Origin: Acidobacteriota bacterium
GTDB taxonomy: Bacteria > Acidobacteriota > UBA6911 > RPQK01 > CBDAPI01
DNA: 64,000 nt
NCBI GenBank assembly: GCA_965197285.1
Contig: OZ240092.1
Span: forward strand, 3,947,337 to 4,011,336
Reading direction: 5' to 3'
How positions within the stretch are numbered: the first letter of the stretch is position 1; every line of letters begins with the position of its first letter. The notes under the pieces are model-generated. The model did no database searches and had not been told where the DNA came from. It saw nothing but the letters and a program-made list of their open reading frames with translations. This document shows positions 7,356-54,557 of the stretch, in pieces. The translations under genes and the position numbers were made by a program.

Positions 7356-7387
7356 GGTCTATCATTGTAGGTCGGAGGAACAACACC

Positions 7388-8359: not shown

Positions 8360-8374
8360 ACCGGATAGGAAGCC

Positions 8375-9310
8375 ATGAAGCATCGGTTCGTCCTTGTGTG
8401 CATCGTTGTCCTGGGCGTGAGCTGCGGCTCGCTGTTCTCCCAGGAGACCGAGAAGAGGATCGCGCTAACCTTTGAGTACGTGCCGTTCATGAAACCGATG
8501 GGATTCTATCGGGCCCGTGAACTGAGCAACTTGATCCTTCGGAACCTGAAGCAGGAGAACATTCAGGCCGCGGGGTTCGTCGTTCAATCCAAGGTCGAGG
8601 ATGATCCTTCGACCTATGTAATACTGGATGATTGGGCCGCCCAGGGGCACGTCCTGGGCAACCAGACGTGGGGCGACGCCGACTACAACGAACTGGAACA
8701 CCGCTACTTCTTCGAGCACGTTCGTGACGGGCAGAAACACCTGCGCACTATTGCGCTCGCCCATCCCCTCAACTACCGGTTTTTGCGTTTTCCCTACCTG
8801 CACGAGGGGGACACTCCAAAGAAGAAAAAGCGCATTCGAAAAGATCTCGATCGCGGCAATTATCGAATCGCCCACGTCTCGGTCAAAACCGCGGTTAATT
8901 TCTTCAACCGTCCCTTTGTGCGTTCCCAAACCGAGCACCCTGAAAAACTGGAACCCTTGAAGAAGAAGTACCTCGGCCACGTGATGGCCTCGCTCGACTA
9001 CGCGGAGAAGCAGAGTCAAGCGGTCTTCGGGCGCAACATTCCCCATGTCCTGCAACTGCATATGGGAGTCGCCACGTCGCTGATGATCAAGCCTTTGATC
9101 GAGGCCCTGAAGTCCAGGGGCTACGGTTTTGTCAGCCTGGTCGACGCGCTCGACGATCCTGCTTACAGCACGACGGAGGAGTATGTGGGTCCTCTGGGTC
9201 TGACTTTTACCGATCGAGTCGCTTTTACCAGAGGCCTGTCCTTTGATGCGGGCTCAGGAGTTGACTCCGGCGGGCTCGAAAAGGATCTGGAAGCCTTCCT
9301 GGAGCGGTAA
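8375..9310 (+). CDS. NodB-like polysaccharide deacetylase family protein, probably catalytically divergent; signal peptide
   Basis: GHVLGNQTW and RFPYLHEG resemble NodB motifs 2/3, but motif 1 is TFEYV (not TFDDG) and the second His is Gln. Confidence 0.5.
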   Translation: MKHRFVLVCIVVLGVSCGSLFSQETEKRIALTFEYVPFMKPMGFYRARELSNLILRNLKQENIQAAGFVVQSKVEDDPSTYVILDDWAAQGHVLGNQTWGDADYNELEHRYFFEHVRDGQKHLRTIALAHPLNYRFLRFPYLHEGDTPKKKKRIRKDLDRGNYRIAHVSVKTAVNFFNRPFVRSQTEHPEKLEPLKKKYLGHVMASLDYAEKQSQAVFGRNIPHVLQLHMGVATSLMIKPLIEALKSRGYGFVSLVDALDDPAYSTTEEYVGPLGLTFTDRVAFTRGLSFDAGSGVDSGGLEKDLEAFLER

Positions 9311-34375: not shown

Positions 34376-34630
34376 TCAGCCCCCGAAGCTGCGGAAGGAT
34401 GGCCGCCGGGATTCATATTCGCGGATGCGGTCCTCGACCTGCAGAGTGAGTCCCACGTCGTCGATACCCTGCAGAAGGCATTTCTTTCGAAAGCGATCGA
34501 TTTCAAAGCCGAAGCTGAGGGCGGGGCCGGCTTGAATCGTTTGTGACTCCAGGTCGACTCCTATTTCGTAGCCGCGTCTTGCCAGGGCGGCATCGCGGAG
34601 TTGAGTCACCCGGTTCTCTGGCAGGACGAT
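34376..34630 (-). pseudogene. leuD: 3' remnant of leuD (3-isopropylmalate dehydratase small subunit); only about 95 C-terminal codons remain
   Basis: ...IVLPENRVTQLRDAALARRGYEIGVDLESQTIQAGPALSFGFEIDRFRKKCLLQGIDDVGLTLQVEDRIREYE matches the LeuD C-terminus (FxIDxFRxxCLLxGLDDIGLTLQ); the N-terminal GCGSSREHAPWAL region is absent on either side of the IS. Confidence 0.6.
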
Positions 34631-36014
34631 GAGCTATGGTCGGAAGTTGTGTATGAGAGGCGGCGTATCCTGAATCCGTGACCTTCAATCATGGATTCAC
34701 CCGGAGACCGAGAAGGAGGATACGCCTTGAAGAAAGATACTGTAGTTTCCATCGACGAACCAACCACAACGAAGGATGCCTTGACGGAAGTTCTGCGTGA
34801 AGGAGCACAGAAGCTTCTGGCTGAGGCGGTTCAAGCCGAGCTGGAGGAGCTGCTGGAAGAGTACGAGGGTCAGCGTGATGGCCAGGGCCGCAAACGTCTG
34901 GTTCGCAACGGCTACCTGCCGAAGCGTGAGATCCAGACAGGGATTGGAGGAATCCCGGTTCGGATTCCGCGGGTTCGAGACCGTGGAACTGGTGAGGAGT
35001 CGGAGGAGATCATCCGCTTTCGTTCCAGCCTGGTGCCTCCCTATCTGAGACGTAGCAAGAGCGTGGAGGAACTGCTGCCCCTGCTTTACCTGAAGGGGAT
35101 CTCCACAGGAGACTTCTCGGATGCGTTGAGTGCACTGTTGGGGCCGGATGCACCGGGACTGTCGGCCAAGACGATCAGCCGGCTCAAAGGCAAGTGGGTC
35201 AAGGATTATGAGAAGTGGAGGCTGCGTGATCTCTCCAACAAGCGCTACGTTTACGTTTGGGCCGATGGCGTGTATGCCAACGTTCGCTTTGACGACGGCC
35301 GGCTTTGCCTTCTGGTGCTGATCGGAGCCCGTGCGGACGGCAAAAAGGAGCTGATTGCCGTGGAAGATGGCTACCGGGAAAGTGAGCAATCCTGGTGGGA
35401 GTTGCTGCGGAATCTGCGCTCCAGAGGCCTGCACAGGGGACCAAAACTGGCGATTGGCGACGGAGCGCTCGGATTCTGGAAAGCCCTGGCCAAGATCTAC
35501 GGCAATACGCGACAGCAACGCTGCTGGATGCACAAGACGGGCAATGTGCTCAACTGTCTGCCCAAGGCCGTTCAGCCAAAAGCAAAGACGGCGCTGCATC
35601 AGATCTGGATGGCTGAAACTCGAGAGAATGCCTATAGGGCCTTTGACGAGTTCATTGCCACCTATCAGCTGAAGTTTCCAAAGGCCACGTCCTGCCTGGC
35701 CAAGGACCGGACAGAGTTGCTGGCTTTCTACGATTTTCCAGCCGAGCACTGGCCACATCTGAGAACCACAAATCCGATCGAGTCGACCTTCGCAACCGTG
35801 AGACTGCGAACGGCCAAGACTCGAGGCTGTTTGTCCAGGCAAACCATGCTGACGATGGTCTTCAAACTATGCAGAAGCGCTGAGAAAAGATGGCGCCGGC
35901 TACAAGGTTGCCGGCGCCTCGGAGAGGTCATAGAAAACGTCACATTTGTAAACGGAATCCGTGAAAACGAGGTCGCCGCCTAATGGGTCCGTACCCAACT
36001 TTTGACAATAACTC
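34631..36014 (+). mobile_element. IS256-family insertion sequence (1384 bp) flanked by 9-bp direct repeat CAGGACGAT
   Basis: imperfect about 25-bp terminal IRs (GAGCTATGGTCGGAAGTTGTGTATG / rc GAGTTATTGTCAAAAGTTGGGTACG); TSD at 34622-34630 and 36015-36023. Confidence 0.8.
34691..35983 (+). CDS. IS256-family (mutator-type) transposase
   Basis: DDE transposase with the IS256 C-terminal signature (…YDFPAEHWPHLRTTNPIESTFATVRLRT…). Confidence 0.9.
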   Translation: MDSPGDREGGYALKKDTVVSIDEPTTTKDALTEVLREGAQKLLAEAVQAELEELLEEYEGQRDGQGRKRLVRNGYLPKREIQTGIGGIPVRIPRVRDRGTGEESEEIIRFRSSLVPPYLRRSKSVEELLPLLYLKGISTGDFSDALSALLGPDAPGLSAKTISRLKGKWVKDYEKWRLRDLSNKRYVYVWADGVYANVRFDDGRLCLLVLIGARADGKKELIAVEDGYRESEQSWWELLRNLRSRGLHRGPKLAIGDGALGFWKALAKIYGNTRQQRCWMHKTGNVLNCLPKAVQPKAKTALHQIWMAETRENAYRAFDEFIATYQLKFPKATSCLAKDRTELLAFYDFPAEHWPHLRTTNPIESTFATVRLRTAKTRGCLSRQTMLTMVFKLCRSAEKRWRRLQGCRRLGEVIENVTFVNGIRENEVAA

Positions 36015-36500
36015 CAGGACGATGGGCAGGAGGTCGTTATTGACACGAATGTCTTTCTCTCAGGCGTCTTCTTTGGCGGGCTACCCTGCCGGATCTTGAG
36101 GGCCTGGCGTGACAGCAAGCTCACCCTGGTTTATTCCTTGGAAATTCTGGGTGAGTATAGAAGAACGGGTGTCAGACTGGCACGTCGGTTCGAAGGGCTA
36201 GATCTCGATCCATTTCTCGCGCTGGTGGTAACTGAAGGCAGGCTTTTCGCCTCCCCCGCCCTGGATGAAGACGTGTGTGAGGACCCTGCAGACGACAAGT
36301 TCTTCGCATGCGCGGTCGCGAGCGGCTGCAGGCTGATTGTTAGTGGTGACAAGCATCTGCTCAAGGCAACGGGATACACAGCATTGAAGTGCTCCGGCCT
36401 CGAGCATTCGTGGAGAGTTATCTCTAGCCCGGATTATGCAAGAGATCTAAATTCAAGTGAGATTTGGGCCCAGGAAAAAGGCCGTAGCTCTCTGATATAA
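36015..36500 (+). pseudogene. PIN-family toxin (TIGR00305-like toxin-antitoxin component PIN family). Its 5' end is split off by the IS256 insertion and its 3' end runs into the IS1380 terminal repeat
   Basis: VVIDTNVFLSGVFFGG...DPADDKFFACAVASGCRLIVSGDKHLL matches the family; no start codon after the IS; a candidate original TTG start lies at 34601 on the other side of the IS. Confidence 0.6.
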
Positions 36501-38080
36501 AAGGGTTTACAAAAACAAAGACCCTAAACAGGAGCTACGGCAATGTCAAAAACAGTCTGCCAGAATACCCTGCCATTTCACAGCCACAGAAAGATCACGA
36601 CGCGTTTTGATGGAGGGAGCCTCACTTCCGACGCAGGATGGTTGTTGTTTGGATCCCTGGATCGTCAACATCGATTGTGCGAGGGCTTCAGTTCGTGTAT
36701 TGCGGAAAGTCGAGACCGACGCTACGTTCGTCATGACCTGTTGAAGTTGATCCGACAACGAGTCTTGCAGATCGTGGCCGGCTACGAAGACTGTAACGAC
36801 GCCGATACGCTGCGCTCGGATCCGATGCTCAAGACAGTCTGTGATCAGTTGCCAGAGAGCGATCCCGATTTGGCCACCCAGCCGACTTTCTCCCGCCTGG
36901 AGAACTCCGTCACCAAGAAGGATCTGATGCGTCTGAGCCGGTGGCTGCCAGGCCGTTATGTGCGCTCCCTGAAGAAGAGACGTCCCAGCAAGATCATCCT
37001 GGATCTGGACAGTACCGACGACCACACTCACGGCCAACAGGAGTTCTCCTTCTACCACGGGTATTACCGAAACCACATTCTGCATCCTTTGCTGATCTTC
37101 GATGCCGACACGGGAGACCTGGTCTGTGCCGTGTTGAGACCTGGCAACAAGGGGGCTGCCTCTCACATCGTGCCCATTCTGAAGCGAGTCGTGGAGGCCA
37201 TCCGACAAGCAGTGGGGACGGATGTCGAGATTGAGATTCGGGCCGACAGCGGCTTTGCCACGCCTCGGCTCTACGAGTTCTGTGAATGTGAAGAGAATAA
37301 ACTCCAGTATGTCATTGGGTTAAGTCGAAACCCTCGCCTGCAGCGAGTGGTCGAGCCCCTGCTGGATTCGACTCGGCTGAGGTTCCTTGAGCTGGAGGAA
37401 AAACAGCGTCAGTTTGACGAGTTTCTTTATCGAGCCCACAGCTGGGATCGATCCCGTCGCGTCATTGTCAAAGTGGAGGTCGATCAGCGTGGCATCAATC
37501 GTCGCTTTGTAGTTACCAACCGGGACGATCTCTGCTCCCAATCACTTTATGACCACTACACAAACCGAGGGCAGACCGAGAACTTCATCAAGGCCTTCAA
37601 GAATCATCTGAGCATGGACCGACTCAGCTGTCATCGATTCCTGGCCAATCAGTTTCGACTCCTCCTGCATGCACTGGCTTACCAGATGTCCGTGCGCCTG
37701 CGCGACTATCTTCACGGAACCCCCTGGCACAAGCTCGAAATCGAAACCTTACGTCGTCGGGTCCTCAAGATCGGGGCCCGGATCCGACAAACCACTCGAC
37801 GCATCTGGGTCCATCTTTCCTCAGCCTTCCCCGAACAACCCCTCTTCCACCTCGTCTTGAGTCGCCTGAACTCCAGTTAGCTTTTCCCAGCTCCCCCGAA
37901 AAACCGCTTCCGACACTCATCCAGGCCCAGATCTGTCTGAAATTCACTCCCCAAACCACTCAAACGCCTCGCCAACCCATATTCTTCGCAAATCCGCCTG
38001 TCACACCTGCCCGCTTCCGAGTTGGGCCACTTCTCAAGTCGTTTTTCAACACCGAACTACGGTTCTTGCATAATCCGGGC
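36460..38080 (+). mobile_element. IS1380-family insertion sequence, copy a (about 1.6 kb; ends approximate)
   Basis: transposase 36543-37880; candidate IRs GCCCAGGAAAAAGGCCGTAGCTC / rc GCCCGGATTATGCAAGAACCGTAGTTC. Confidence 0.6.
36543..37880 (+). CDS. IS1380-family DDE transposase
   Basis: FDGGSLTSDAGWLLF, LDLDSTDDHTHGQQE, YHGYY, ADSGF, YTNRGQTENFIKAFKN signatures. Confidence 0.9.
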   Translation: MSKTVCQNTLPFHSHRKITTRFDGGSLTSDAGWLLFGSLDRQHRLCEGFSSCIAESRDRRYVRHDLLKLIRQRVLQIVAGYEDCNDADTLRSDPMLKTVCDQLPESDPDLATQPTFSRLENSVTKKDLMRLSRWLPGRYVRSLKKRRPSKIILDLDSTDDHTHGQQEFSFYHGYYRNHILHPLLIFDADTGDLVCAVLRPGNKGAASHIVPILKRVVEAIRQAVGTDVEIEIRADSGFATPRLYEFCECEENKLQYVIGLSRNPRLQRVVEPLLDSTRLRFLELEEKQRQFDEFLYRAHSWDRSRRVIVKVEVDQRGINRRFVVTNRDDLCSQSLYDHYTNRGQTENFIKAFKNHLSMDRLSCHRFLANQFRLLLHALAYQMSVRLRDYLHGTPWHKLEIETLRRRVLKIGARIRQTTRRIWVHLSSAFPEQPLFHLVLSRLNSS

Positions 38081-38082
38081 TA

Positions 38083-38523
38083 GTGGCTGACCGCACCGAG
38101 TTCTGGTGGAACGAGCGCAAGCCCGACGAGCCGATGCTGTGGGAAAGCAAGATCGAACTCGGCGAGAAGTTTTTTAACGAGATTATCCGCCACCCAGTGC
38201 CGCTGGACATGAATACCCTCAACGCGCTCAAACGCTGCTCCCTGGGTCTGGATCTCTACCTCTGGCTCGCCTACCGCACCTTCGCTCTCCGCGCTCCGCA
38301 ACGGCTCACCTGGAAGCAGTTGTACCGTCAGTTCGGCCCGCATCCGGCCAAGGCGAACGATCCCGCCACCGTCAAGAACTTCCGCCGCAAAATCCTACGG
38401 GAGTTGAAGAAGATCAAGATCGCGTGGCCGGACCTAAACTACACTACGGCTCCGGGGGTCTTGATTCTCTTGCCCTCGACGCCCATCATCCTTCCGGGGC
38501 AGCAGCTTTCACTCCCGGAGTAG
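38083..38523 (+). pseudogene. C-terminal fragment of a plasmid replication initiator (RepA_C domain); N-terminal half missing
   Basis: VPLDMNTLNALKRCSLGLDLYLWLAYRTF...TWKQLYRQFG...NFRRKILRELKKIKIAWPDL matches the RepA_C family; begins (GTG) right at the IS1380 end, preceded by an in-frame TAG. Confidence 0.6.
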
Positions 38524-38643
38524 CCCTCAAGTCGCGCGCGTCCCGCACCAAGGATCGCCCCAGACGACCCCGCGCAGTCGCGGGTGGCCTCTTCTAGTGC
38601 CCGCGCCGCTGAAAGTTCGCGCCAGCCCTCCTGCGGCAATTTT

Positions 38644-38830
38644 TTCGAGAGGTTTATCCACAGGGCCACGTAATCCGGCTAGTTTTCCACGCCTAAAGTG
38701 GACCCCTGGAACAATTAACCTTTCGCCTAAAGTGGACCCTCTCAGCCAAAATCCCTTCGCCTAAAGTGGACCCCCATACAAGTAGTAAAGAACAAGTAGT
38801 AGGAGCGACTACTTCTGTGGATAAACAGGA
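38644..38830. promoter_or_regulatory. plasmid oriV-like segment: DnaA boxes flanking three iterons and an A/T-rich direct-repeat patch
   Basis: TTATCCACA at 38654-38662 and its complement TGTGGATAA at 38816-38824; 3x CGCCTAAAGTGGACCC at 38690, 38724, 38758 (34-bp period); CAAGTAGTAAAGAACAAGTAGTAGG. Confidence 0.5.
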
Positions 38831-39757
38831 AGGAAAAACCGGAGAAACCAGAACCACAGAAAAAGAGGGGCCGGGCCTCCTAAAGCCGTAGAAACATTTT
38901 ATTAGTTGAGTTGCGACCGATCCTGCATATCCATTTGCATTCCCAGATCTCGAAGAATCTCCATCTTCGCTTTTACCTCGGAAGGGCCGATCACCCGGAG
39001 TGTGTCAAAGAACTCGCGCAGGCTCTCCGGGCCCAACCCACAAACGTTCAGGGCCTCGCCGACCTGGCCGCAGTTGGGGCAGAGCGTCTGTCCCGTCCCG
39101 ATGTCTTCACCCTCGACGCGCCGCACAGCGTGATCGACTGGGTGGACGACTCGCCCACCCAGTCCACGCGCAAGTGGTGATAACGATCTTGGTTCTTCAT
39201 GGCCTCTACAGATTACCTCAGTTTAGCGTTCCGTTCTGGGACAATTTGCGCAAAGGAACGGTTACGCACCAATTTGACCCGGTAACGATAACCCCGTCGC
39301 TGTGGCGGTCCGGGACAGCTGTTACGGTGGCAGTCCGTCACACCTTCCCCTGCCGCTCAATGGCAGGTGAGCATAGTTTATGTGACTGGACGGCACTGTC
39401 AGAAGAAACGGGCTTGAGTTGGCGAGATGCGCCTTGTAGTGTCTTGGGATGAAGAACCCATTTCGCTATTTCAGGACTTCGCCCGAGATCATTCGCCTTG
39501 CCGTGATGATGTAGGTGCGCTTCCCACTGTCGCTACGCAATGATGTGCCGGTTTCCGTCCATCGGCGTTTCAAGACAGCGTGTAGCGCAACCAGCCGCCA
39601 GATGGTCGCTGAGTTACGACACGTGATCGAAGCCCGTATATTGGAGCTTGAAAGTGAGATCGGAAGCGTTGGGCAGGATGACCTCTGCTAATGCGCATGT
39701 TACCTTTTGCCAGCACTTTCTTGTTGAAATTGGCTTCTAGATGACGCCTGATAACAA

Positions 39758-42700
39758 TTGTCGCGGGTTGATGGGAGGCTTGATGATGGACTTTGCTGGA
39801 ACCGAAGGGACTCAGGGACTCGGCGAATGCAGCACTTCTGTGTTGGCCGGCCGGGTTGGGCGACGGTGCGGCCCGGCGCGGCCCATCCGGCTGGCGACTC
39901 GGGTGGCCGAAGCCGGCGCGGGCCGGTTGCGCCGCTTGTTGCCCTTGCCGGGGCGGCAGCGGCGGCCCCCGCCCTCGCCCAGACCCCCTCGCACTGCAAC
40001 CCGTCGGACCGCAACGAACTCTGGTGCGCGACCCTGACGGTGGAGCTAGACCACCGGTTCGCGGATACTTGGGCGGATATTATCGGGTTTGTCGCCCCCG
40101 ATTCCGGCACGAGTTCTCCTCCTTACGGGAGCGTCGCGCCCGGGCGCACCTTCACTTGGCGCGGGAACTCGTTCAGAGTGGACGTTCTCCGTGTCCGGGG
40201 GATGGGGCAGTTGATATTCAGGTTCGGCCCGGACCGTCTCGGGTCCGGCGTTTTCGCGCTGGAGGTCGGGACGGGAGCGAGCAAGCGAAGCTTCCCAATT
40301 CTCCTTAACGGTTCAAGGTTCCAACAATGGTCCGACACGGGCCTGGCCGGGGCCTGGTCGGCGGGCGACAGCGTCCCGGTCAAGCTCGTCCGCATCGCCA
40401 CCGTGCCGGGCAGGCCGGCCTCCCTGCACGCGGTCCCGAACGGGCAGACGCAGATCGACCTCACCTGGGGCGCCCCCGAGGATGGCGGCGCGGATATCAC
40501 GGGCTACAGGATCGAGGTGTCCACCGACGGAGGCCTCACGTTCAGGGAGCTCGTGGCCACCACGTCCAGCCGGAGCACGACCTACAGCCACACCGGTCTC
40601 ACGCCCGGCAGGACCTATCACTACAAGGTCAAGGCGATCAACTCCGTCGGCACGGGCCCCAGATCGTTGATTCCCAGCGCCACCGCCGGCGCCCCCCCGC
40701 ACAACGTCAACGCGACTGCGCAGTGCGACGCGACCGACAGCAACGAACTGTGGTGCGCCACCCCCTGACGGTGGGCAAACATTCTGCCTTCTTTGGGCTT
40801 GGCAACGTTGCCGGCAGAGTACTTGGCAGTGCCCAACCCGCGTCCTTCACCCTGGACTCGCAGGAAATCCATGTCAGGAAACTGATGTACATTGCCGGAT
40901 CGCGGGCCCTCGATTTCGAAATCTCTCACGGTCTGGGCTCCGGCCACTTCTCGCTGGAGATCGGCACGGGTCGGATCAAGAAGTCCTTCCCCATCGTGAA
41001 CCGGGGAACCCGAACGGTGTTCCGCTTTTCCTTGCAAGGCCTCAACTGGCAGCTCGTCGATACGGCCCCCGTCACGCTCAAGCGCGCCGGCCGCCCGGGC
41101 AGGCCGACCTCGCTGCGCGCGACCGCGAACGGGCCGAGCCAGGTCGACCTCACGTGGAACGCCCCGGAGGATGACGGCGCCGGCCGGATTACGGGCTACA
41201 AGATCGAGTGGGAGGAGCAGGAAGTTTATTTTGCGAAAACCCTCGTGGAAGACACGGGCAACGCGAAGACGACCTATGGCCACACCAGCCAAGGCCCCAT
41301 CCCTCTCAAAGGGGGCGAACTTTACTTTTACCGGGTCTCGGCGATCAACTCCGCCGGAACGGGTCCCGCAACCGAATGGGTGGAGATTGTCGCCAACACC
41401 GCGAGCCCGGCGCTCGGGCACTGCAACCCGTCCGACCCGGACGAGTTCTGGTGCGCCACCATGACGGTCGACACGTGGAGTAGTACGAACGCCAATTGGT
41501 TCGGTTTCCAGACTTATGGGTCAGACCACGGCGACCTATCCCCCAGGATGTTTGCCTGGCAGGGGACCAGCTACACGGTCAGTCAGTTGATCTTCGAACA
41601 AGCCAAACAGGACCTAGATTTCATAGAGATACGGTTCCGTATAAATCCCCTAGGGGCGGCGACGTTTTATGAACAGGACTACGTGCTGCATGTCGGAAAC
41701 CAGCGGTTCCCGTTTCAAGCTGCCAGTGGCTTTCCGGGGGCAGGTCAACGCTATCACGAATGGCTGGATACGGACGTCGACTTCCTGGGGATGTTTTCGA
41801 CGGGCGACCAGGTCATCGTGAAGCTGACGCGCACCAATCACCCGCCAACGTCACGTGACAACCGGGTCTACATCGAGGAGAACACGGGCCATAACTTCTC
41901 GCGTCCGGAGTTTCCATTCTCCGATGAAGACCAGGGCGACCGGCTGGAACGCGTCAGGATCGTGACCGTGCCCGCGGCGAGGAAAGGCACCCTGACCCTC
42001 GACGGCTCTGCGGTGAGCGCCGGCGACACGGTGACGCCCAGTCAACTGGAGGCTGGCCTTCTCAGGTACTCGCCGCCCCCATGGCGGTTTGGCCGGAACC
42101 TCGCGAGATTTGCCTTCAGAGTGAGCGACGGCAAGGACGAGAGCGCGGCAGACTACACGCAGGCGATCAGTGTGACCCGCTCCTCCGGTGGCTACCACGT
42201 CGGGGGTGGCGGCAAGCTTTCGCAGAAATTCACCACGGGCCCCAATCCGGCCGGCTACCGGCTGGAGGACGTCACGGTCGGGATCATACAGGGGCCGCCC
42301 GCCGTGCCGGCGTTCTCGATCTACAGGCCGGTCTCCCGCCTCCAGTCGAAACCGGGGACCGAAAAGGTCCTCGACTTGACCGGCAGCGTGGCCACCACGG
42401 GGGACCAGACCTTCACGCCCGCACCGGGCACGCCCGACAGCGCGCGGATCCTCGAACCCGATACCAGCTATCACGTGGTGTTCGAGGCGGCCTCGAACTC
42501 CCCCGCAAGTGTGCGGCTGCAGCAGAGCACGGCCCCCCCGACCTGAGCAGAGTCCCGGAGGGATGGTCCTTGCAGAACTGGCATTACTATTACGACCGCA
42601 CCCCCCCGAATACCAGCGTCCCGTGGGCCTGGGGCATCAGCACCAGCGGCATCGTCCTGATCGGGATCACCGCCACTCCGGGGGGGGGCGCCGCAGATCG

Positions 42701-43939
42701 CGGTCGATCCGCCGATCGTCGAGGGCGCGCCCCGCCTCAGCGGCGCAGCCGACGGCGGAACCTGGCGGGAGGGCGAGACCGTCGAGGTGGCGCTCACCTT
42801 CAGCGAGGCGGTGGACGTGGACACGACGGACGGCAGGCCGTCGGTCGGCCTCGCGCTCGGGGGACACGCCGCCGCTCCCCGCCGACTATCTGCGGGGCAG
42901 CGGCACGACGGAGTTGGTCTTCGGCTACACGCTGGTCGATGGCGACGGCGACCACAACTCCGTGCTGGTGATGGCGAACAGCCTGACGCTCGATGGCGGG
43001 ACCATCCGCAGCCAGGAGAAGCAGGCGGACGCGCTGCTGGACCACAACGGCGCGGGGACACAGGGCGGCGGCGGCCCTCTCAACGCCGCGCCGACGGCAA
43101 GCTTCCAGGACGTACCGGAGCACCATGACGGGGAGACGGCCTTCACCGTGGGGCTGCGCTTCAGCGGTGAGCCCGCGGGGCTCGATGCCAAGCGGGACGC
43201 GGCCTCGGTGCTCGAGGTGACGGGCGGGACCGTGACGGGTGTGCGGCGGACGGAGACGGGCGCGAGCCCGGTCTGGGAGGTGACGGTCGCGCCCTCGGGC
43301 ATCGGCGACGTGACGGTGCGGCTGCCGGCGCGGGCCTGCGGCGAGGCGCACGCGGCGTGCATCGGCGGGCGGGCGCTGGCCGAGGCCCTGGAGGCGGCGG
43401 TGCCGGGCCTGGCGATGACGGCAGGCTTCACGCAGGCGCCGGATGCGCATGACGGCTCGGGCGCCTTCGAGCTGCACCTTGCGTTCAGCCACGAGCCGAA
43501 GGGCTTCAGCTACCGCACGGTGAGGGATGCGCTGTTCGATATTGAGGGCGGGCGCATCGAGCGCGTGTGGCGCAACCCGCGCGGGCAGAACCGCCAGTGG
43601 GGCATCGAGGTGGTCCCGGCGGGGGATGGCGCGGTCACGCTCACCGCGCGGGCCACAACCAGCTGCGCGGCGCAGCATGCCGCCTGCGACGACGCGGGGA
43701 GGAAGTTCGCGGGAGACCTGGTGCTCACGATCGAAGGTCTCGACGCCGGCGGGGAGCAGACCGAAGATCCGCCCGACCCGATCACCGCGCGCTGGTCACA
43801 GGCGCCCGCCGAGCACGACGGGACCAATGCGTTTAAGATCCGCTTCCATCTGAGCGCGTCACCGGGAAGCCTGAGCTACGTGACGGTCCGGGATTCGCTC
43901 TTCGCCGTGACGGGGGGCAGCATTGACCTTGCCCCCTAA
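39758..43939 (+). pseudogene. giant secreted repeat protein (adhesin-like). It has an N-terminal signal/TAT-like peptide, three ~130-aa Cys-motif modules interleaved with two fibronectin type III domains (third module alone), an Ig-like repeat and three ~105-aa C-terminal tandem repeats. It is interrupted by at least four frameshifts at G/C homopolymers (plus an in-frame TGA at 42544 after a C7 run) and truncated at 43923 by IS3
   Basis: ORFs 39758-40768, 40327-42546, 42787-43128 and 42509-43939 join into one protein if single-base indels are assumed at C5 (about 40753), C7 (about 42535), G9 (42680-42688) and G5 (about 42855); FN3 signature (TWxAPxDDGGxxITGYxI...YxYxVxAxNxxGxG); local GC about 70%. 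Confidence 0.6.
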
Positions 43940-43990
43940 AACGGGTCCAAGTTGAATGTTAGGATTTTCGGTTTTAGGAAGGAGGCAAGG

Positions 43991-44269
43991 ATGGCACGGA
44001 AGCGGTTTACGGCAGAACAAATCATCATGAAGCTGCGTGAGGCAGAGGCAGGTCTAGCCCAAGGACAGACGGTGGGCCAGATGTGCAAACAGATTGGGGT
44101 GACCGAGCAGACCTACTACCGGTGGCGCAAGGAGTACGGAGGGCTTCGACTGAATCAGGCCAAGCGGTTGAAGGTGTTGGAGAAGGAGAATGCCCGGTTG
44201 AAGAAGCTAGTGGCAGATCTGTCTTTGGACAAGCAGATCCTAAAGGAAGTTTCCTCGGGAAACTTCTAG
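43991..44269 (+). CDS. IS3-family transposase OrfA (HTH plus leucine zipper)
   Basis: MARKRFTAEQIIMKLREAE...[21 protein letters not shown]; RBS GGAAGGAGG upstream. Confidence 0.8.
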   Translation: MARKRFTAEQIIMKLREAEAGLAQGQTVGQMCKQIGVTEQTYYRWRKEYGGLRLNQAKRLKVLEKENARLKKLVADLSLDKQILKEVSSGNF

Positions 44270-45162
44270 GCCCGGCGAAGAGGAGACGCGCAGTGGTGTG
44301 GGTGAGGGAGAGATTGGGAGCAGAGCGCGTCTCCGAACGTCGGGCCTGCCAAGTGCTGGGACAGGCTCGATCGACCCAGCGAAGGGAAAGGCATATCCCC
44401 GATGATGAGGCTCGATTGGTGGCTGAGGTGGTGGAGTTGGCCACGCACTACGGGCGATACGGCTACCGACGGATCACGGCCATGCTTCGTTGGGAAGGGT
44501 GGAAAGTGAATCACAAGCGGGTGGAGAGGTTGTGGAGACAGGAGGGGCTGAAAGTCCCGTCCAGACAGCCGAAACGAAGGAGACTGTGGCTTCATGATGG
44601 ATCCTGCGTTCGGTTACGAGCGGCTCACAAGGATCACGTCTGGAGCTATGACTTCGTGCATGAGCGAACCCATGACGGAAGGGCCTTTCGATTATTAACC
44701 CTACTGGATGAATACACCCGGGAGTGTCTGGCCATTGAGGTTCAACGACAGATGAATCACCAGGACGTGTTGGATCGATTGGCGGAGTTGTTCGTGGATC
44801 GGGGAGTGCCTGAATACATTCGGTCCGATAACGGGTCGGAGTTTACGGCTCAGGCGGTTCGGGACTGGCTGAAGGCTGTTGGGGTGAGGACCTTACACAT
44901 CGAGCCCGGCAGCCCCTGGGAGAATGGATATGTGGAGAGCTTCAACGGAAAACTGCGGGATGAACTGCTGAACGTAGAAGTCTTCGACACGTTGTGGGAA
45001 GCGAAGGTGTTGGCCGAGAGATGGCGCAGGGAGTACAACCAGCGACGGCCTCACAGCGCCTTGGCCTATCGGCCGCCGGCGCCGGAGGCCAGATTACCCA
45101 GGTCCCAGGCCCAGAGTTCTATACCATGGAGTGGACTTCAAATGGTCCCAGGTCTAACTTAG
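44083..45162 (+). CDS. IS3-family transposase OrfB (integrase/DDE core), presumably expressed as OrfAB by -1 frameshifting around 44240-44270
   Basis: DDE core with [12 protein letters not shown] and [16 protein letters not shown] motifs. Confidence 0.8.
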   Translation: MQTDWGDRADLLPVAQGVRRASTESGQAVEGVGEGECPVEEASGRSVFGQADPKGSFLGKLLGPAKRRRAVVWVRERLGAERVSERRACQVLGQARSTQRRERHIPDDEARLVAEVVELATHYGRYGYRRITAMLRWEGWKVNHKRVERLWRQEGLKVPSRQPKRRRLWLHDGSCVRLRAAHKDHVWSYDFVHERTHDGRAFRLLTLLDEYTRECLAIEVQRQMNHQDVLDRLAELFVDRGVPEYIRSDNGSEFTAQAVRDWLKAVGVRTLHIEPGSPWENGYVESFNGKLRDELLNVEVFDTLWEAKVLAERWRREYNQRRPHSALAYRPPAPEARLPRSQAQSSIPWSGLQMVPGLT

Positions 45163-45191
45163 AGAGTGGACTCGTTCCTGGGGGCAGGTCA

Positions 45192-45611
45192 ATGGTGACA
45201 TCGACGGGTCTTCTGAGAGGCTCCACCCGATTCCAGTTGATCGGCGAGGAAACAGGGACTTTGGTGGAGGATGTGGGGATTCCCAACGCCAGAACCGGAA
45301 GCAGGTTCCTGACCGCTTACCGCAAGAAGGATGAATTGGCTTTTGCGATCGCCAACCCGACCGAAGACCAGATTGAAGTCAAGGTTCTGGTCTACGACAG
45401 CGAGGATCCGGGCCAGCCGGCGGGGGGATTTCTGATCTTCGTCCCGGGTCGCGGCCAGGTGGCCAGGTTCTTGAGTCAGTTCGTACAGACCGATTTCGAA
45501 GAAGGACACCTGATTGTCGAGAGCGACGGCGGGGAGGAGTTTGCCCTGTCAGGTCTGATTACCTTGGACGGACTTTTCGTTTCGGCGCAGTCGATTTCAC
45601 TGCTTCAGTAA
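45192..45611 (+). CDS. hypothetical protein, possibly 5'-truncated (ATG abuts the IS3 right end)
   Basis: 139-aa ORF immediately after IS3; no motif recognised; GC lower than the adhesin region. Confidence 0.35.
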   Translation: MVTSTGLLRGSTRFQLIGEETGTLVEDVGIPNARTGSRFLTAYRKKDELAFAIANPTEDQIEVKVLVYDSEDPGQPAGGFLIFVPGRGQVARFLSQFVQTDFEEGHLIVESDGGEEFALSGLITLDGLFVSAQSISLLQ

Positions 45612-50612: not shown

Positions 50613-50819
50613 GCCCAACCGGCTGGCACAACAGGCCCCTGCGAGACGGACCGCTATCAGCGCTTCGAGGCCACACGGCGCGTGACCTTGCCCCCTAAAA
50701 CGGGTCCAAGTTGAATGTTAGGATTTTCGGTTTTAGGAAGGAGGCAAGGATGGCACGGAAGCGGTTTACGGCAGAACAAATCATCATGAAGCTGCGTGAG
50801 GCAGAGGCAGGTCTAGCCC

Positions 50820-52552
50820 GCATAGATCACCGATTTGGAAATGAAGGTGATTTTGGCAGGCCGGAACGGTTTTCTGAGAGTTTCGCTATCGATCCGGTCC
50901 AGGTCGAGTGATGCGGTGGTGTGGAGGGTCGTGAATGGAGCGTTTTTCGGGCTCGGAAGAGGGTGACGGAACGGATTCAGGCAGAGCTCGGCCTGAGCGA
51001 TGGAACGATTTCGTTTTTGGGGCGTTTGATCGGGACAGACCTCAGCAGCGCAGAGGAATGGCCTGGAGGTTTCGAACGACGGCAGCGAAGACCTCGCTGT
51101 AGGGATAGGCTTCCGACATGGAGATCCAGACGTGGCGGACCGTGAGGCGGACCTGGGCGCCGATCTTGAGGAGCTTCAAGCGAATCGTCTGACACTGAGC
51201 GCGAGCCAGGGGGGTCTGCTTCAGTCCGAGACGACGCAAGGCGTGCATGAGCATGTAGGCGGCGGAGGACAGATACAGCCGGAGTTGATTGGCGCGCATC
51301 GTTGCCGCGCTGGTCCGGTCGGCGAACAGATCCAACTGCTGTTCTTTTATGCGGTTCTCCATGTCGCCCCGCGCACAGTAGAAGTCTTCGTAGAGCGCGC
51401 GGGCCCCCAGGCGTTCCGGCGACAGGGAGGTGACGATGAATCGGGGATTGGCGCCTTTCTCCAGGAACTCGGCCTTGCCGACGACGCGTCGCTCCGAGGT
51501 CCAACTGTGGCGAGTCCGGTAGCGGAAATCCTGGAACACCCGCGCCGGTCGCCCGGTGGCGTTGAACTCGGCTTCGGCCTGAGTCATCGCTTCGGCGATC
51601 TCTGACTTGAGCCGATCATTGTTGGCCAACCCCATCACGTAATCCACGTGATGGTCTTCACACCAGCGGAGCAAGTCATCCCGGCAAAAGCCAGAGTCGG
51701 CCCGGATGACGATCGAGACCTCCGGCCAGCTCTGCCGAATCCGGCCGACGATCCGTTCCAGTTCCTCCGCCGATCCCGCGGCCCCATCGATATTGGAACA
51801 CCGCAACCGGGCGCACAGCAGATGCTCCCCCGAGAAGATGTACAGCGGGAGATAACAGTAGTGGCGGTAGTAACCGTGAAAGAACCGGCCTTCCTGCTGG
51901 CCATGGATCGGGTCGTCGGTCGCATCCAGATCCAGCACGATCTCCTCGGGCGCCGATTCGTGGGACTCCACGAAGGCATCCACCATCCAGCCGTCGATCC
52001 GGTCCGGGTCCATCGCGATCTTCTTGTACCGCTCCTGCTCATCGACCTCGGCGCCGGTCAACTCCAACCGGTTCAGCGTACACCTGCCCGCCAGCGCCTT
52101 CCCCCGATCTGAGGCCTGCCGCCGCCGCTCCCCCAACGGATCGGCCTTATTCACCGCCACCGCCAGCATCGGATCGGTGCGCAACTGATCATGATCGTTC
52201 AGATCCTCGTACCCCAGACAGAGTCCGTAGATGCGCTGCCCCAACAACTCCTCGACCGTGTGTTCGATCAACCGCGGATCCCGGTGATCCCTGAAGCACG
52301 CGGTCAGTCCGGCAACGAGACCCGTCCGCTGCTCGACCTCGCGTAACAGCAGCACCCCTGCATCGGAGGTGATCTTCCCGCCGTCGAACCGCGCCTTCAC
52401 TTTGCGTTGAAATAGTCCGTGAAATTCGAACCTGGCTTGTTTACACTCTGTTCTCATAAGGGCCGCCTCCGTTTGGCTTTGAAGTCTTTCATTCAAAACG
52501 CTTTATACCAAACAGGGCGGCCTTTTGAGGTCCTATCGGTGAGAAATGGCGG
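50820..52552 (-). mobile_element. IS1380-family insertion sequence, copy b (a different member from copy a), nested inside IS3 copy 2
   Basis: IRs GCATAGATCACCGAT / rc CCGCCATTTCTCACCGAT; target CTAGCCC present on both sides (TSD 4-7 bp, exact ends ambiguous). Confidence 0.65.
51042..52496 (-). CDS. IS1380-family DDE transposase
   Basis: FDGGKITSDAGVLLL, LDLDATDDPIHGQQE, FHGYY, ADSGF, YCARGDMENRIKE signatures. Confidence 0.9.
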   Translation of the reverse strand: MNERLQSQTEAALMRTECKQARFEFHGLFQRKVKARFDGGKITSDAGVLLLREVEQRTGLVAGLTACFRDHRDPRLIEHTVEELLGQRIYGLCLGYEDLNDHDQLRTDPMLAVAVNKADPLGERRRQASDRGKALAGRCTLNRLELTGAEVDEQERYKKIAMDPDRIDGWMVDAFVESHESAPEEIVLDLDATDDPIHGQQEGRFFHGYYRHYCYLPLYIFSGEHLLCARLRCSNIDGAAGSAEELERIVGRIRQSWPEVSIVIRADSGFCRDDLLRWCEDHHVDYVMGLANNDRLKSEIAEAMTQAEAEFNATGRPARVFQDFRYRTRHSWTSERRVVGKAEFLEKGANPRFIVTSLSPERLGARALYEDFYCARGDMENRIKEQQLDLFADRTSAATMRANQLRLYLSSAAYMLMHALRRLGLKQTPLARAQCQTIRLKLLKIGAQVRLTVRHVWISMSEAYPYSEVFAAVVRNLQAIPLRC

Positions 52553-53661
52553 CTAGCCCAAGGACAGACGGTGGGCCAGGTGTGCAAACAGATTGGGGTG
52601 ACCGAGCAGACCTACTACCGGTGGCGCAAGGAGTACGGAGGGCTTCGACTGAATCAGGCCAAGCGGTTGAAGGTGTTGGAGAAGGAGAATGCCCGGTTGA
52701 AGAAGCTAGTGGCAGATCTGTCTTTGGACAAGCAGATCCTAAAGGAAGTTTCCTCGGGAAACTTCTAGGCCCGGCGAAGAGGAGACGCGCAGTGGTGTGG
52801 GTGAGGGAGAGATTGGGAGCAGAGCGCGTCTCCGAACGTCGGGCCTGCCAAGTGCTGGGACAGGCTCGATCGACCCAGCGAAGGGAAAGGCATATCCCCG
52901 ATGATGAGGCTCGATTGGTGGCTGAGATGGTGGAGTTGGCCACGCACTACGGGCGATACGGCTACCGACGGATCACGGCCATGCTTCGTTGGGAAGGGTG
53001 GAAAGTGAATCACAAGCGGGTGGAGAGGTTGTGGAGACAGGAGGGGCTGAAAGTCCCGTCCAGACAGCCGAAACGAAGGAGACTGTGGCTTCATGATGGA
53101 TCCTGCGTTCGGTTACGAGCGGCTCACAAGGATCACGTCTGGAGCTATGACTTCGTGCATGAGCGAACCCATGACGGAAGGGCCTTTCGATTATTAACCC
53201 TACTGGATGAATACACCCGGGAGTGTCTGGCCATTGAGGTTCAACGACAGATGAATCACCAGGACGTGTTGGATCGATTGGCGGAGTTGTTCGTGGATCG
53301 GGGAGTGCCTGAATACATTCGGTCCGATAACGGGTCGGAGTTTACGGCTCAGGCGGTTCGGGACTGGCTGAAGGCTGTTGGGGTGAGGACCTTATACATC
53401 GAGCCCGGCAGCCCCTGGGAGAATGGATATGTGGAGAGCTTCAACGGAAAACTGCGGGATGAACTGCTGAACGTAGAAGTCTTCGACACGTTGTGGGAAG
53501 CGAAGGTGTTGGCCGAGAGATGGCGCAGGGAGTACAACCAGCGACGGCCTCACAGCGCCTTGGCCTATCGGCCGCCGGCGCCGGAGGCCAGATTACCCAG
53601 GTCCCAGGCCCAGAGTTCTATACCATGGAGTGGACTTCAAATGGTCCCAGGTCTAACTTAG
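52546..53661 (+). CDS. IS3-family transposase OrfB (copy 2)
   Basis: near-identical to 44083-45162. Confidence 0.8.
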
Positions 53662-53687
53662 AGAGTGGACTCGTTCCTGGGGGCAGG

Positions 53688-54557
53688 TCAGCGACTGCCT
53701 CCGAGCTTCTGTCGAAACCGCCGGGCCGCATGCGCCAGGTCGATTCCGGCCAGCACCAGGCGGGTCTGGAGCGGGTGGGCCCTGGGAGCGTAGTGTTTGG
53801 CATGGAAGATCTTCATGGCGTCAAAAAAATGCCTGGTGTTCACCGCCGTGTCCTGGTCTGAGCTGCGACTCTTCAGGTGGGTAACTGTGGCCCCGGCATA
53901 GTACTCCACCAGCCAGCCCGCCTGGAGGGCCCGATAGCAGAAATCCAGGTCCTCGCCATAGAGGAAAAACCCTTCATCCAGGAGCCCGATCTTCTCGGTC
54001 AGTTCTCGGCGAAACATCAGAAACGAACCGGAGACCGCTTCCACCGGCTGCGTCTTGTTTTCGTCCAGAGAGGTCAGGTTGTAGGCTCCGAACTCCCGAC
54101 TGCGGGGAAACAGTCGGCTCAGCCCGAGAAAGCGATAGATCGAATTTCGGACCGTGGGTATGGAGCGCTGGCAGGCCAGCTGGAGACTCCCGTCGGGATT
54201 CAGGATCCGGCATCCCACTACACCCGTCTGCGGGCGGCTCCGAAGGTAGTCCAGGGTCTTCTCGATGGCGTTGTCGTGAATGATAACGTCCGGATTCAGG
54301 AGCAGGAAAAAGGGGGCAGTAGCGTGACGGATTCCACGATTGCAGGCTTTGGCAAACCCCTCGTTGTGCCGATTGAGGAGAAGCACGGGTGAAGAACAGC
54401 GGAGTTCGTTTTCCAGCCGGGACTGGTCAGAGGAAGCGTTGTCCACGACAACCACTTGGATCTGGTCTTCTTGATTCGCCCTTCGTATGCCGGACAGACA
54501 CTGAAGAAGGTCGGCAGTCGAGTTGTAGTTCACGATGATGACGGATAGTTGCATCAC
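53688..54557 (-). CDS. GT2-family glycosyltransferase; its stop codon is supplied by the IS3 terminal TCA (last about 6 native codons replaced)
   Basis: VIIVNYNSTADLLQCL...VVDNASSD GT2 N-terminus; reconstructing the pre-insertion sequence gives ...LGGSRRVASKR*. Confidence 0.8.
   Translation of the reverse strand: MMQLSVIIVNYNSTADLLQCLSGIRRANQEDQIQVVVVDNASSDQSRLENELRCSSPVLLLNRHNEGFAKACNRGIRHATAPFFLLLNPDVIIHDNAIEKTLDYLRSRPQTGVVGCRILNPDGSLQLACQRSIPTVRNSIYRFLGLSRLFPRSREFGAYNLTSLDENKTQPVEAVSGSFLMFRRELTEKIGLLDEGFFLYGEDLDFCYRALQAGWLVEYYAGATVTHLKSRSSDQDTAVNTRHFFDAMKIFHAKHYAPRAHPLQTRLVLAGIDLAHAARRFRQKLGGSR

Follow-up and report, generated by a model that had tools for sequence, protein, structure and literature searches.

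A probable IS1380-truncated remnant of a RepA_C-type iteron plasmid replication module on a chromosome-like contig of an Acidobacteriota bacterium

In Salmonella genomic island 1 (SGI1), replication requires a RepA_C rep gene that is directly followed by four 17-bp iterons, a DnaA box and AT-rich regions (PMC7433901). The locus described here lies in a 64,000-nucleotide stretch of DNA from an Acidobacteriota bacterium (the window, to which all coordinates refer) and resembles the SGI1 rep (S003)/oriV module in several respects: it encodes a RepA_C initiator with oriV directly 3′ of rep, its origin combines direct-repeat iterons of 17 bp with a DnaA box and with A+T-rich regions that contain short repeats, and it appears to sit within a chromosome as part of mobile DNA (PMC7433901). 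SGI1 rep, however, is intact and is accompanied by an integrase and an excisionase, and SGI1 replicates after excision, whereas the window rep is halved and no integrase was seen. SGI1 also has four iterons and one DnaA box, as against three iterons with a strict period of 34 nt and a pair of inverted boxes in the window. No similarity is detectable at the nucleotide level, and the hosts belong to different phyla. SGI1-like IMEs and ICEs are islands bounded by an integrase/excisionase and attachment sites, with an intact rep-oriV; here rep is truncated, and the ORFs scanned around the segment included no tyrosine or serine recombinase, only IS transposases.

The RepA proteins of Rhodothermus marinus pRM21 and pRHOM17201 and the RepA_C initiators of PLSDB plasmids at large (Burkholderia, Xanthomonas, PromA-type plasmids) belong to the same protein family as the window RepA, with 38–48% identity over the retained region. 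They are distant relatives only, and the conserved layout of the origin is particular to the acidobacterial family. At the level of fold, the model of a longer family member matched mini-F RepE, domains 2–3 of Vibrio chromosome-2 RctB and the WH1 domain of a pPS10-type Rep, and iteron binding by two winged helices is presumably shared with the window family, although a sequence search with the family profile gave no match to any PDB chain and the window has the second domain only.

Among IS1380-family elements, strong outward promoters are documented for ISEcp1 and ISPme1, and both mobilise DNA beside their 3′ end (PMC9330008). The window shares with them an IS1380-family element with foreign DNA directly at its 3′ end and an outward promoter-like site. 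It differs in its CTAG target with a 4-bp duplication and in that, 3′ of the origin, we found neither a convincing surrogate right IS end with CTAG nor the matching duplication of a larger IS-carried unit. From the evidence below, we consider it very probable that 38080–39240 is a young, inactive, IS-truncated fragment of a RepA_C-type Acidobacteriota iteron plasmid replication module.

The repA fragment and its origin

A 3′ part of an initiator gene of the RepA_C type (repA′) occupies 38080–38523 on the + strand. Its ORF (38083–38523) starts with GTG at 38083 and encodes 146 aa. The preliminary description had recognised a RepA_C C-terminus in this ORF, and a Pfam search bore this out: RepA_C (PF04796) was matched with an E-value of 6.5e-12 and 46.5 bits (cut-off 26) over profile positions 100–179 of 181. 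The fragment corresponds to residues ~179–325 of an initiator of ~325 aa, the C-terminal ~45%. Residues 180–325 of a full-length RepA from a related locus (L008), which scores 103.6 bits against RepA_C, align to it with 70% identity (tblastn), and residues 162–292 of pRM21 RepA also align. The N-terminal half had been described as missing, and tblastn with the pRM21 and L008 proteins indeed detected no 5′ half of repA in the 64-kb window; residues ~179–325 alone are present of the complete two-half initiator of ~300–325 aa. No NCBIfam model covers the window RepA. Comparison with plasmid databases, which the preliminary description had suggested, was successful for the protein, with annotated RepA homologues on 916 PLSDB plasmids (identity up to ~48%), but not for the origin, as a nucleotide search of PLSDB with the oriV region gave no match.

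The fold was examined on an AF2 model of the longer homologue (P0012) and not of the window fragment. This model was of moderate confidence (pLDDT 74, pTM 0.75), and its top Foldseek matches in the PDB were RctB domains 2–3, RepE54 and a Rep WH1 domain (probability 0.96–1.0, TM 0.4–0.6, E 2.6e-5 to 1.4e-2). The family initiator is thus predicted to have a WH1–WH2 fold with two winged-helix domains (RepE/pi/RctB class). The window fragment retains the final strand of the N-terminal winged-helix domain and the entire C-terminal domain; it keeps the second (WH2) domain only.

A conserved short chromosomal RepA_C protein was also considered and was rejected, as intact family repA genes of 323–326 aa are common in polished MAG loci. 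The best 120 RepA matches were 141–256 aa long and all came from 1x–12x long-read assemblies. The N-terminal "extensions" of the short homologues begin anywhere across residues 80–183; such spread-out starts are typical of frameshifted gene calls, and the short homologues are mostly frameshift artefacts. A breakpoint hot spot at residue 179 was likewise considered, but three cases only were observed, the window and two 3′ repA fragments in another locus (L003, start 179/180). The three were independent by nearest-neighbour analysis, and a crude estimate gave p ~0.02; we do not count the coincidence as a finding.

The first DnaA box of the origin (TTATCCACA, 38654–38662) lies in the inverted-repeat arm GTTTATCCACAG (38652–38663, + strand). 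A DnaA box had been reported 120 nt downstream of the ORF; the box is exact, but the distance is 130 nt past the stop codon. A second box closes the origin at 38815–38826 on the − strand, where the + strand reads CTGTGGATAAAC, and the two boxes together make a 12-nt perfect inverted repeat of GTTTATCCACAG. The 64-kb window has no exact DnaA box other than these occurrences of TTATCCACA, at 38654 (+) and 38816 (−); 0.18 copies would be expected. Between them, a conserved, DnaA-box-like AGTTTTCCACG motif (38681–38691, +) overlaps the start of the first of three iterons, CGCCTAAAGTGGACCC(C/T), at 38690, 38724 and 38758 (38690–38774, +). The three perfect copies and their 34-nt period are as first described, whereas the repeat is 17 nt long (16 invariant positions plus C/T) and not 16. 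The first iteron starts 167 nt past the repA′ stop codon, and the iterons are tandem direct repeats in helical phase beside a rep gene. We found no further copies in the window, even at 3 mismatches. The A+T-rich patch noted earlier is a block at 38776–38803 (+) with ACAAGTAGTA twice (38778 and 38792), between the iterons and the second DnaA box. It is the presumed DNA-unwinding element.

By its sequence, the window origin appears to be a bona fide, complete iteron-type oriV. Dozens of homologous loci have this module in the same order after repA, so the pattern goes beyond chance. As to a chromosomal oriC, neither dnaA nor dnaN was found among the ORFs scanned around the site, and the homologues of the module are plasmid origins. 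The iteron pair had no matches in JGI metagenomes, and among ~200 fetched loci the iteron occurred in the source contig alone; in these searches we did not detect a plasmid with the same iterons.

By analogy with known iteron replicons, and with the RepA_C replicon of SGI1 for which the mechanism is experimental, RepA monomers with two winged helices would bind the iterons just 3′ of repA in an intact module, host DnaA would occupy the two flanking boxes, and the adjacent A+T-rich ACAAGTAGT repeats would melt, whereupon theta replication would start. The origin in the window cannot fire by itself because WH1 and a full initiator in cis are missing. If it has any residual effect, this would be to bind DnaA passively, or a cognate RepA provided in trans.

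The IS1380-family element and the truncation of repA

The IS1380-family element (36428–38079, + strand) is 1.65 kb long. Its transposase (gene at 36543–37880) matched the IS1380-family model NF033539 with 372.8 bits (cut-off 180) and DDE_Tnp_1_4 with 1.7e-143 and 478 bits. The IS ends, CCCGGATTATGCAAGA and TCTTGCATAATCCGGG, are perfect 16-nt inverted repeats beginning CC, with CTAG outside both (36424–36427 and 38080–38083). The right inverted repeat is perfect over 20 nt (38064–38083), and the repA′ ORF begins on its last base, confirming that the ORF starts at the right end of the element. The window holds a natural empty-site control: for a sister element, empty and filled sites in two IS3 copies showed that CTAG is a 4-bp target duplication, and IS1380-family elements here target CTAG with a duplication of that length. 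A 95% identical full copy of the IS at another locus (L129) also has CTAG on both sides. When metagenomes were scanned with the 16-mer IS end, matches were mostly due to chance; only L129 and one further locus (L162) were real, and in L162 a related IS end is followed by CTAA.

Nucleotide homology to repA extends into the CTAG abutting the IS; there, CTA GTG specifies L-V in ..SSLVADRTEF. The IS1380 end is supported as the point at which repA was truncated. In this respect the original proposal, in which a plasmid integrated here and its rep gene was later cut by IS1380, was sustained, but its simple two-step order was not: on its other side the IS borders the 3′ end of a gene unrelated to repA, and not the repA 5′ half. 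This flank carries a PIN_3 toxin gene (36012–36427, +; PIN_3 E 2.2e-17) which, in one reading frame, terminates at the TAG within the left CTAG. No PIN homologue was found near repA in 80 related loci, and the gene is unrelated to the replicon. Since a PIN gene occupies the other flank, we infer, and can only infer because the 5′ half of repA was located nowhere, that a second IS-driven step removed that half.

The two CTAG copies are also what would be found after a simple insertion, had the junction between the PIN_3 gene and repA′ existed before the IS arrived. The IS would then simply have inserted at the CTAG of the junction and duplicated it; the IS-free sequence would read ...GTTATCTCTAGTGGCTGACC... 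without interruption, and the PIN frame would run to a stop within it. The matching flanks are uninformative on this point and do not prove a simple insertion, because this group of IS always duplicates CTAG and has it on both sides. A junction older than the IS is very unlikely in our view: it needs two independent events within 4 nt, and repA homology reaches the right-hand CTAG, as if the IS had hit an intact repA.

In the course of events that we favor, insertion into an intact repA, a CTAG-targeting IS1380 element would have entered at the CTAG in codons Leu178–Val179. Recombination or a deletion between IS copies would then have separated the 5′ 55% of repA, or else the IS would have moved together with DNA at its 3′ end, in the manner of ISEcp1 and ISPme1. 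With the right side trimmed near an IS6-family element, the WH2 half of RepA, the complete origin and one small backbone gene would have remained.

A consensus scan revealed a candidate outward promoter within the right end of the IS, a promoter-like TCAACA-17-CATAAT (38046–38074, +) that points to repA′ and ends 9 nt upstream of its GTG. We therefore considered retention of the remnant as a plasmid-incompatibility or exclusion locus, in which the iterons and the WH2-only RepA′ titrate or poison the initiator of a cognate plasmid. RepA′ would be made from the IS1380 outward promoter and would act by handcuffing or dominant-negative binding, and the DnaA boxes would sequester DnaA locally. The promoter-like site is consistent with such a role, as are the intact 146-codon ORF with the whole C-terminal domain, the three perfectly identical iterons, the unraised dN/dS (0.19 for repA′ versus relatives and 0.23 among full-length genes, a test of low power at dS 0.6–0.9) and the two independent L003 fragments that start at residue 179/180. 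Retained function would explain the intact ORF, the perfect iterons and the lack of relaxed selection just as well as young age does, and a very recent truncation predicts all such features equally. Against retention, the GTG start arose by chance at the junction and has no clear ribosome-binding site, neither the JGI metagenomes nor the ~200 fetched loci yielded a plasmid that shares the iterons, and the junctions of short homologues, mostly frameshift artefacts, span residues 80–183. An exclusion role is on balance very improbable, and so is a domesticated anti-plasmid locus in which RepA′ from the IS1380 promoter, iterons and DnaA boxes block the establishment of a cognate plasmid by initiator titration or handcuffing and in which the repeated, independent truncation at ~179–183 (the window and the two L003 copies) reflects selection in Acidobacteriota for iteron-binding domains that stand alone.

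The right flank and the genomic setting

Past the origin, a terminator scan indicated a terminator-like hairpin (38881–38863) beside a small plasmid-backbone gene (38902–39200, − strand). This gene encodes 98 aa in the related locus L054, where it is intact, and has one apparent frameshift here. Its region is 86–88% identical at the nucleotide level to segments adjacent to repA-oriV in L054, L012, L013 and L020, further matches were found in L016 and L003, and its position is syntenic with that in relatives; searches of Pfam, NCBIfam and PLSDB gave no match. Homology to relatives stops near 39240. An IS6-family remnant follows at 39394–39545 (+), with about the first 30 transposase codons and one stop; these are 76–86% identical to residues 2–31 of annotated IS6 family transposases (tblastn). 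We take the IRL-like GGCACTGTCAGAAG to be its left end, by resemblance to IS26-type ends. The surroundings of the remnant are an IS-rich stretch. Integration of a whole plasmid at this exact site is unproven, because the plasmid-derived piece is ~1.2 kb long and ends near the IS6-family remnant.

The host contig looks like a chromosome by gene content and size, in agreement with the chromosomal embedding proposed at the outset. There are housekeeping genes in the left 34 kb of the window, and the contig encodes, among similar functions, citrate synthase, TrkAH and UPF0182. A metagenome contig of 319 kb matches the window at 99.99% identity, and there are records of the same proteins on contigs >1 Mb. 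The long-read coverage of the assembly is low (11x), and small indels, such as the frameshifts in the PIN and 98-aa genes, may be errors. Low coverage could also point to an assembly chimera, IS copies being classic misjoin sites, or the contig could be a plasmid or chromid that uses the window origin, given that relatives of the replicon occur on contigs of many sizes. A chimera would require two misjoins, because typical long reads exceed the length of the ~1.2-kb piece between the 1.65-kb IS and the IS6 remnant. An independent record, with 2 differing bases over 20.8 kb, shows the same arrangement, and one more similar place was reported. A plasmid or chromid could not be maintained by a truncated initiator and does not fit the housekeeping genes. 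Both are extremely unlikely. The window remnant is a real, young, non-functional replicon leftover. Taken alone it is a routine mobile-DNA scar that leaves the reading of the genome unchanged; it is of value because it leads to a very abundant RepA_C/oriV family with a strongly conserved origin architecture and hypervariable iterons.

A replicon family of soil Acidobacteriota

The family comprises more than 2000 protein matches; 182 loci were confirmed in genomes, and 80 of these were examined. Its hosts are almost entirely Acidobacteriota, uncultured soil members of the Bryobacterales, Terriglobia and Vicinamibacterales. We searched the literature and found no description of the family, apparently a large and undescribed group of plasmid replicons of soil Acidobacteriota. 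Since Acidobacteriota are hard to manipulate genetically, a defined minimal replicon of ~1.3 kb (repA plus oriV) would be a practical starting point for shuttle vectors, and it would also help to link plasmids with their hosts in soil metagenomes.

We aligned 18 origins with MAFFT and tallied the module in 70 related repA copies. The order after repA is a DnaA box, AGTTTTCCACG, two to three iterons at 33–34 nt, ACAAGTAGT(T)AAAGA repeats and a reverse DnaA box. The AGTTTTCCACG motif was found 3′ of repA at the same relative position in 42 of the 70 copies (≤1 mismatch), at least two direct repeats occupied the iteron position in 44/70 (with a period of 33–34 in 38 of these 44), and the complete module was present in 20/70. 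At the position of the first DnaA box relatives read TT(A/T)TCCACAG, and at that of the second CTGTGGATAA(C/A). The A+T-rich repeat has three units in most relatives and two in the window. In contrast to this common layout, the iterons are hardly ever the same in two loci: the 44 copies have 38 distinct cores, as expected for specificity determinants.

The preliminary description had read the layout as that of a theta-replicon origin, and plasmid contigs agree with this: there, a full-length repA precedes homologous and identically organized origins. The closest relative of the window module is on a circular, mobilisable 19.6-kb plasmid contig (MobA/MobL), is 85% identical at the nucleotide level and has three CGCTGAAAACATACACA iterons in the same frame. 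The module is also present on an 11.5-kb contig with ParA and a relaxase. Besides small plasmid-like contigs, the family occurs on contigs of many sizes and within chromosomes of 3–9 Mb. On such Mb-scale chromosomes it is often intact and present in several copies.

The RepA fragment and its protein family

The ORF at 38083–38523 (repA′) starts with GTG, encodes 146 aa including LGLDLYLWLAYRTF and scores 46.5 bits against Pfam RepA_C (gathering cut-off 26 bits), matching profile positions 100–179 of 181 only. The preliminary description had read it as the C-terminal part of a RepA_C protein that lacks its N-terminal half, and both points hold: residues 180–325 of the full-length RepA from a related locus (L008) align with the window at 70% identity, and its first 179 residues match nowhere else in the 64 kb. 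Homology to plasmid RepA proteins is borne out by PLSDB, where annotated RepA genes of 916 plasmids, including Rhodothermus, Burkholderia, Xanthomonas and PromA-type plasmids, match the fragment at 33–48% identity (tblastn); in the 307-aa RepA of pRM21, residues 162–292 align with it.

A large protein collection holds > 2000 homologues of the fragment, the best 120 of which share 74–83% identity and are 141–256 aa long throughout. We ruled out that these represent a conserved short RepA_C protein, as they look like frameshifted gene calls. They come from metagenome long-read contigs at 1x–12x, and their non-homologous N-terminal stretches start at points spread across residues 80–183, as expected from such calls; in polished MAG loci, most copies have an intact repA ORF of 323–326 aa. 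Modelled with AlphaFold (pLDDT 74, pTM 0.75), a family member of 256 aa finds its best solved-structure matches in RctB domains 2–3, RepE54 and a Rep WH1 domain, and on this basis the acidobacterial RepA family is predicted to fold as iteron initiators do, with two winged-helix domains. The fragment begins within WH1, the first domain, in its last strand, and retains the second (WH2) whole.

The origin in the window and in its relatives

Two exact DnaA boxes occur in the 64 kb (0.18 expected): TTATCCACA on the plus strand at 38654–38662, beginning 130 nt past the repA′ stop codon, and its reverse complement at 38816–38824. Both are cores of a 12-nt perfect inverted repeat, GTTTATCCACAG/CTGTGGATAAAC. 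Between them lie three iterons, CGCCTAAAGTGGACCC(C/T), at 38690, 38724 and 38758 (period 34 nt), followed on the 3′ side by two A+T-rich units, ACAAGTAGTA, at 38778 and 38792. The boxes, the direct repeats that they bracket and the A/T-rich patch are thus as first described, with two small corrections: the distance to the first box had been given as 120 bp, and the repeats, given as 16 bp, are 17 nt long. We found no further iteron copy in the window, even at three mismatches, and no extra copies that would make iterons and boxes part of a larger unrelated repeat there. In its elements the window's origin is complete, save for two A+T-rich units instead of the usual three.

Alignment of origins from relatives revealed an ordered module 3′ of repA: TT(A/T)TCCACAG, a spacer of ~ 17 nt, AGTTTTCCACG overlapping the first iteron, 2–3 iterons at 33–34 nt, two to three copies of ACAAGTAGT(T)AAAGA, and GGAGCGAC...CTGTGGATAA(C/A). 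Among 70 related repA copies, 44 are followed by at least two direct repeats (38 of these at period 33–34), 42 by the AGTTTTCCACG motif, 35 by the forward and 29 by the reverse DnaA box, and 20 by the complete set. The iteron cores change nearly copy by copy, with 38 distinct cores among the 44 repeat-bearing copies, a variability that looks like that of specificity determinants in iteron replicons.

The closest relative of repA′ (85% nt identity) is found on a contig of 19.6 kb, marked as circular, which also encodes a relaxase (MobA/MobL), a restriction system of the MmeI type and the toxin–antitoxin pair BrnTA; in the origin there, three CGCTGAAAACATACACA iterons stand in a frame identical to the window's. 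A further close relative shares its 11.5-kb contig with genes for ParA-like and relaxase proteins. Experimental precedent for the rep-then-origin arrangement comes from SGI1, where four 17-bp iterons, together with a DnaA box and A+T-rich regions, lie immediately 3′ of a RepA_C rep gene and where replication needs both rep and oriV (PMC7433901). With a RepA_C fragment and a module shared with plasmid relatives, the segment was correctly described as the remnant of an iteron-type plasmid replicon.

Probable truncation of repA by an IS1380-family element

Directly left of repA′ is a 1.65-kb element (36428–38079) whose transposase belongs to the IS1380 family (NF033539, 373 bits; cut-off 180). 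The ORF does start at its right end, as had been noted: the GTG overlaps the last base of a 20-nt perfect right inverted repeat. CTAG flanks the element at 36424–27 and 38080–83. In another metagenome (L129), a 95% identical copy has CTAG at either end; at L162, a related IS end is followed by CTAA. A second, divergent IS1380-family element (50817–52551) splits one of two IS3 copies (50683–53700), with CTAG at each junction, and the uninterrupted copy (43924–45200) has a single CTAG at 44055–44058 in the empty site ...GGCAGGT CTAG CCCAAGG.... Since the empty copy has one CTAG and the filled copy two, CTAG is both the targeted site and the 4-bp target duplication of these elements. Matching CTAGs are therefore no proof that the flanks of the first element were once contiguous.

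Homology to repA extends into the right-hand CTAG, where CTA GTG GCT GAC translates as L-V-A-D, part of the family motif SSL(V/I)ADRTEF, and relatives have tCTGTGGCTGAC or CTTGTAGCCGAC. Because the homology reaches this junction, the element probably struck an intact repA. Its left flank consists of PIN_3 gene sequence (the 3′ end), and none of 80 related loci has a PIN counterpart near repA. Of the proposed history, a plasmid that integrated and whose rep was later cut by IS1380, the insertion into repA stands, but the left flank needs a second step. The most economical account is insertion followed by a second IS-driven event: either two IS copies would have recombined, or lost the DNA between them, or the IS would have transposed along with DNA adjoining its 3′ end, a movement documented for ISEcp1 and ISPme1 (PMC9330008). 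We found no surrogate right end or matching duplication for such an IS-carried unit; its boundary on the right could since have been lost.

Long-read coverage of the source assembly is 11x. The truncation is not a sequencing error, because a whole IS abuts the cut, and an assembly chimera is unlikely, as it requires two misjoins inside 1.3 kb and an independent record holds the same arrangement. The PIN_3 toxin gene (36012–36427) has two apparent frameshifts, a missing start restorable by one extra G in ATGGG and a shifted C-terminus, which look like homopolymer errors of this assembly rather than true decay. A leuD 3′ fragment (34376–34609, minus strand; LeuD/LeuD_C in the source record) near an IS256-family element (34691–35983) is a further gene remnant within the IS-rich stretch.

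On the right, homology to plasmid relatives runs on through a small minus-strand gene (38902–39200) and ends near 39240; an IS6-family end starts at 39394, followed by ~ 30 first transposase codons. The small gene, 98 aa if intact as in L054 (5335–5631), is frameshifted in the window, which may be a homopolymer error, and shares 86–88% nt identity with copies in L054, L012, L013 and L020. It has a CxxC motif, adjoins repA-oriV in a subset of relatives, is better conserved than repA at the nucleotide level and has no match in Pfam, NCBIfam or PLSDB. Beyond it, a region encoding fibronectin-III repeats (39758–44000; up to 70% G+C, long overlapping ORFs in several frames) suggests one very large surface-protein gene with frameshifts or assembly errors.

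Present state and genomic setting

The window's origin cannot initiate alone, because WH1 is absent and the window has no full repA. The remnant is probably young, since its 146 codons are intact, its three iterons are identical and dN/dS is not raised (0.19 for the fragment against relatives, 0.23 among full-length genes; at dS 0.6–0.9 the comparison is blind to a short neutral phase). A promoter-like TCAACA-17-CATAAT lies 9 nt 5′ of the GTG, within the right end of the IS, so that a WH2-only peptide could be made. That this peptide and the iterons interfere with a cognate plasmid would fit the intact ORF, the upstream site and the identical iterons, but we consider it very improbable: each of these features is equally expected after recent truncation, and a plasmid carrying these iterons was not found in JGI metagenomes or the fetched loci. 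Two tandem 3′ repA fragments at L003 (ENA ERZ25074053 ctg471332, 4.66 Mb; 7267–7707 and 8085–8501) both start at residue 179/180, the same point as the window's. Their truncations appear independent, because their nearest full-length relatives differ, and the shared start could reflect a hot spot or selection for WH2.

The remnant is likely embedded in a chromosome, judged by gene content and contig size. The window is 99.99% identical to a 319-kb ENA contig (ERZ25072076:ctg244364_11x_l), and its proteins are also recorded on > 1 Mb contigs; genes in its left 34 kb, such as those for citrate synthase, TrkA/TrkH, UPF0182 and cystathionine gamma-synthase, are of a housekeeping kind, and 34–54 kb is packed with IS256, IS6, two IS1380 and two IS3 elements. 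An Acido-Lenti-1 sRNA (RF01687; 10110–10157, 39 bits, gathering score 37) upstream of a lactate permease gene supports an acidobacterial origin.

The remnant itself is of modest interest; the more useful result is the acidobacterial RepA_C/oriV replicon family, of which we found no description in the literature searched. Scanning one genome per species confirmed 182 loci, 80 of which were kept, nearly all from Acidobacteriota MAGs (Bryobacterales, Terriglobia, Vicinamibacterales, Acidiferrales). The repA copies, often several per genome and many intact, sit on 20–120-kb contigs and within 3–9 Mb chromosomes, where many transposases, IS1380-type included, as well as ParA and ArdC flank them. 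Intact repA-oriV modules also occur inside these chromosomes (L006–L085), and many MAGs have multiple modules, with iterons that differ between modules (for example OZ250179.1, CBDAOY010000005.1, CBDHGK01, CBDDCL01). Clustering also occurs, for example as three copies inside 35 kb or as the tandem pairs of L005 and L010.
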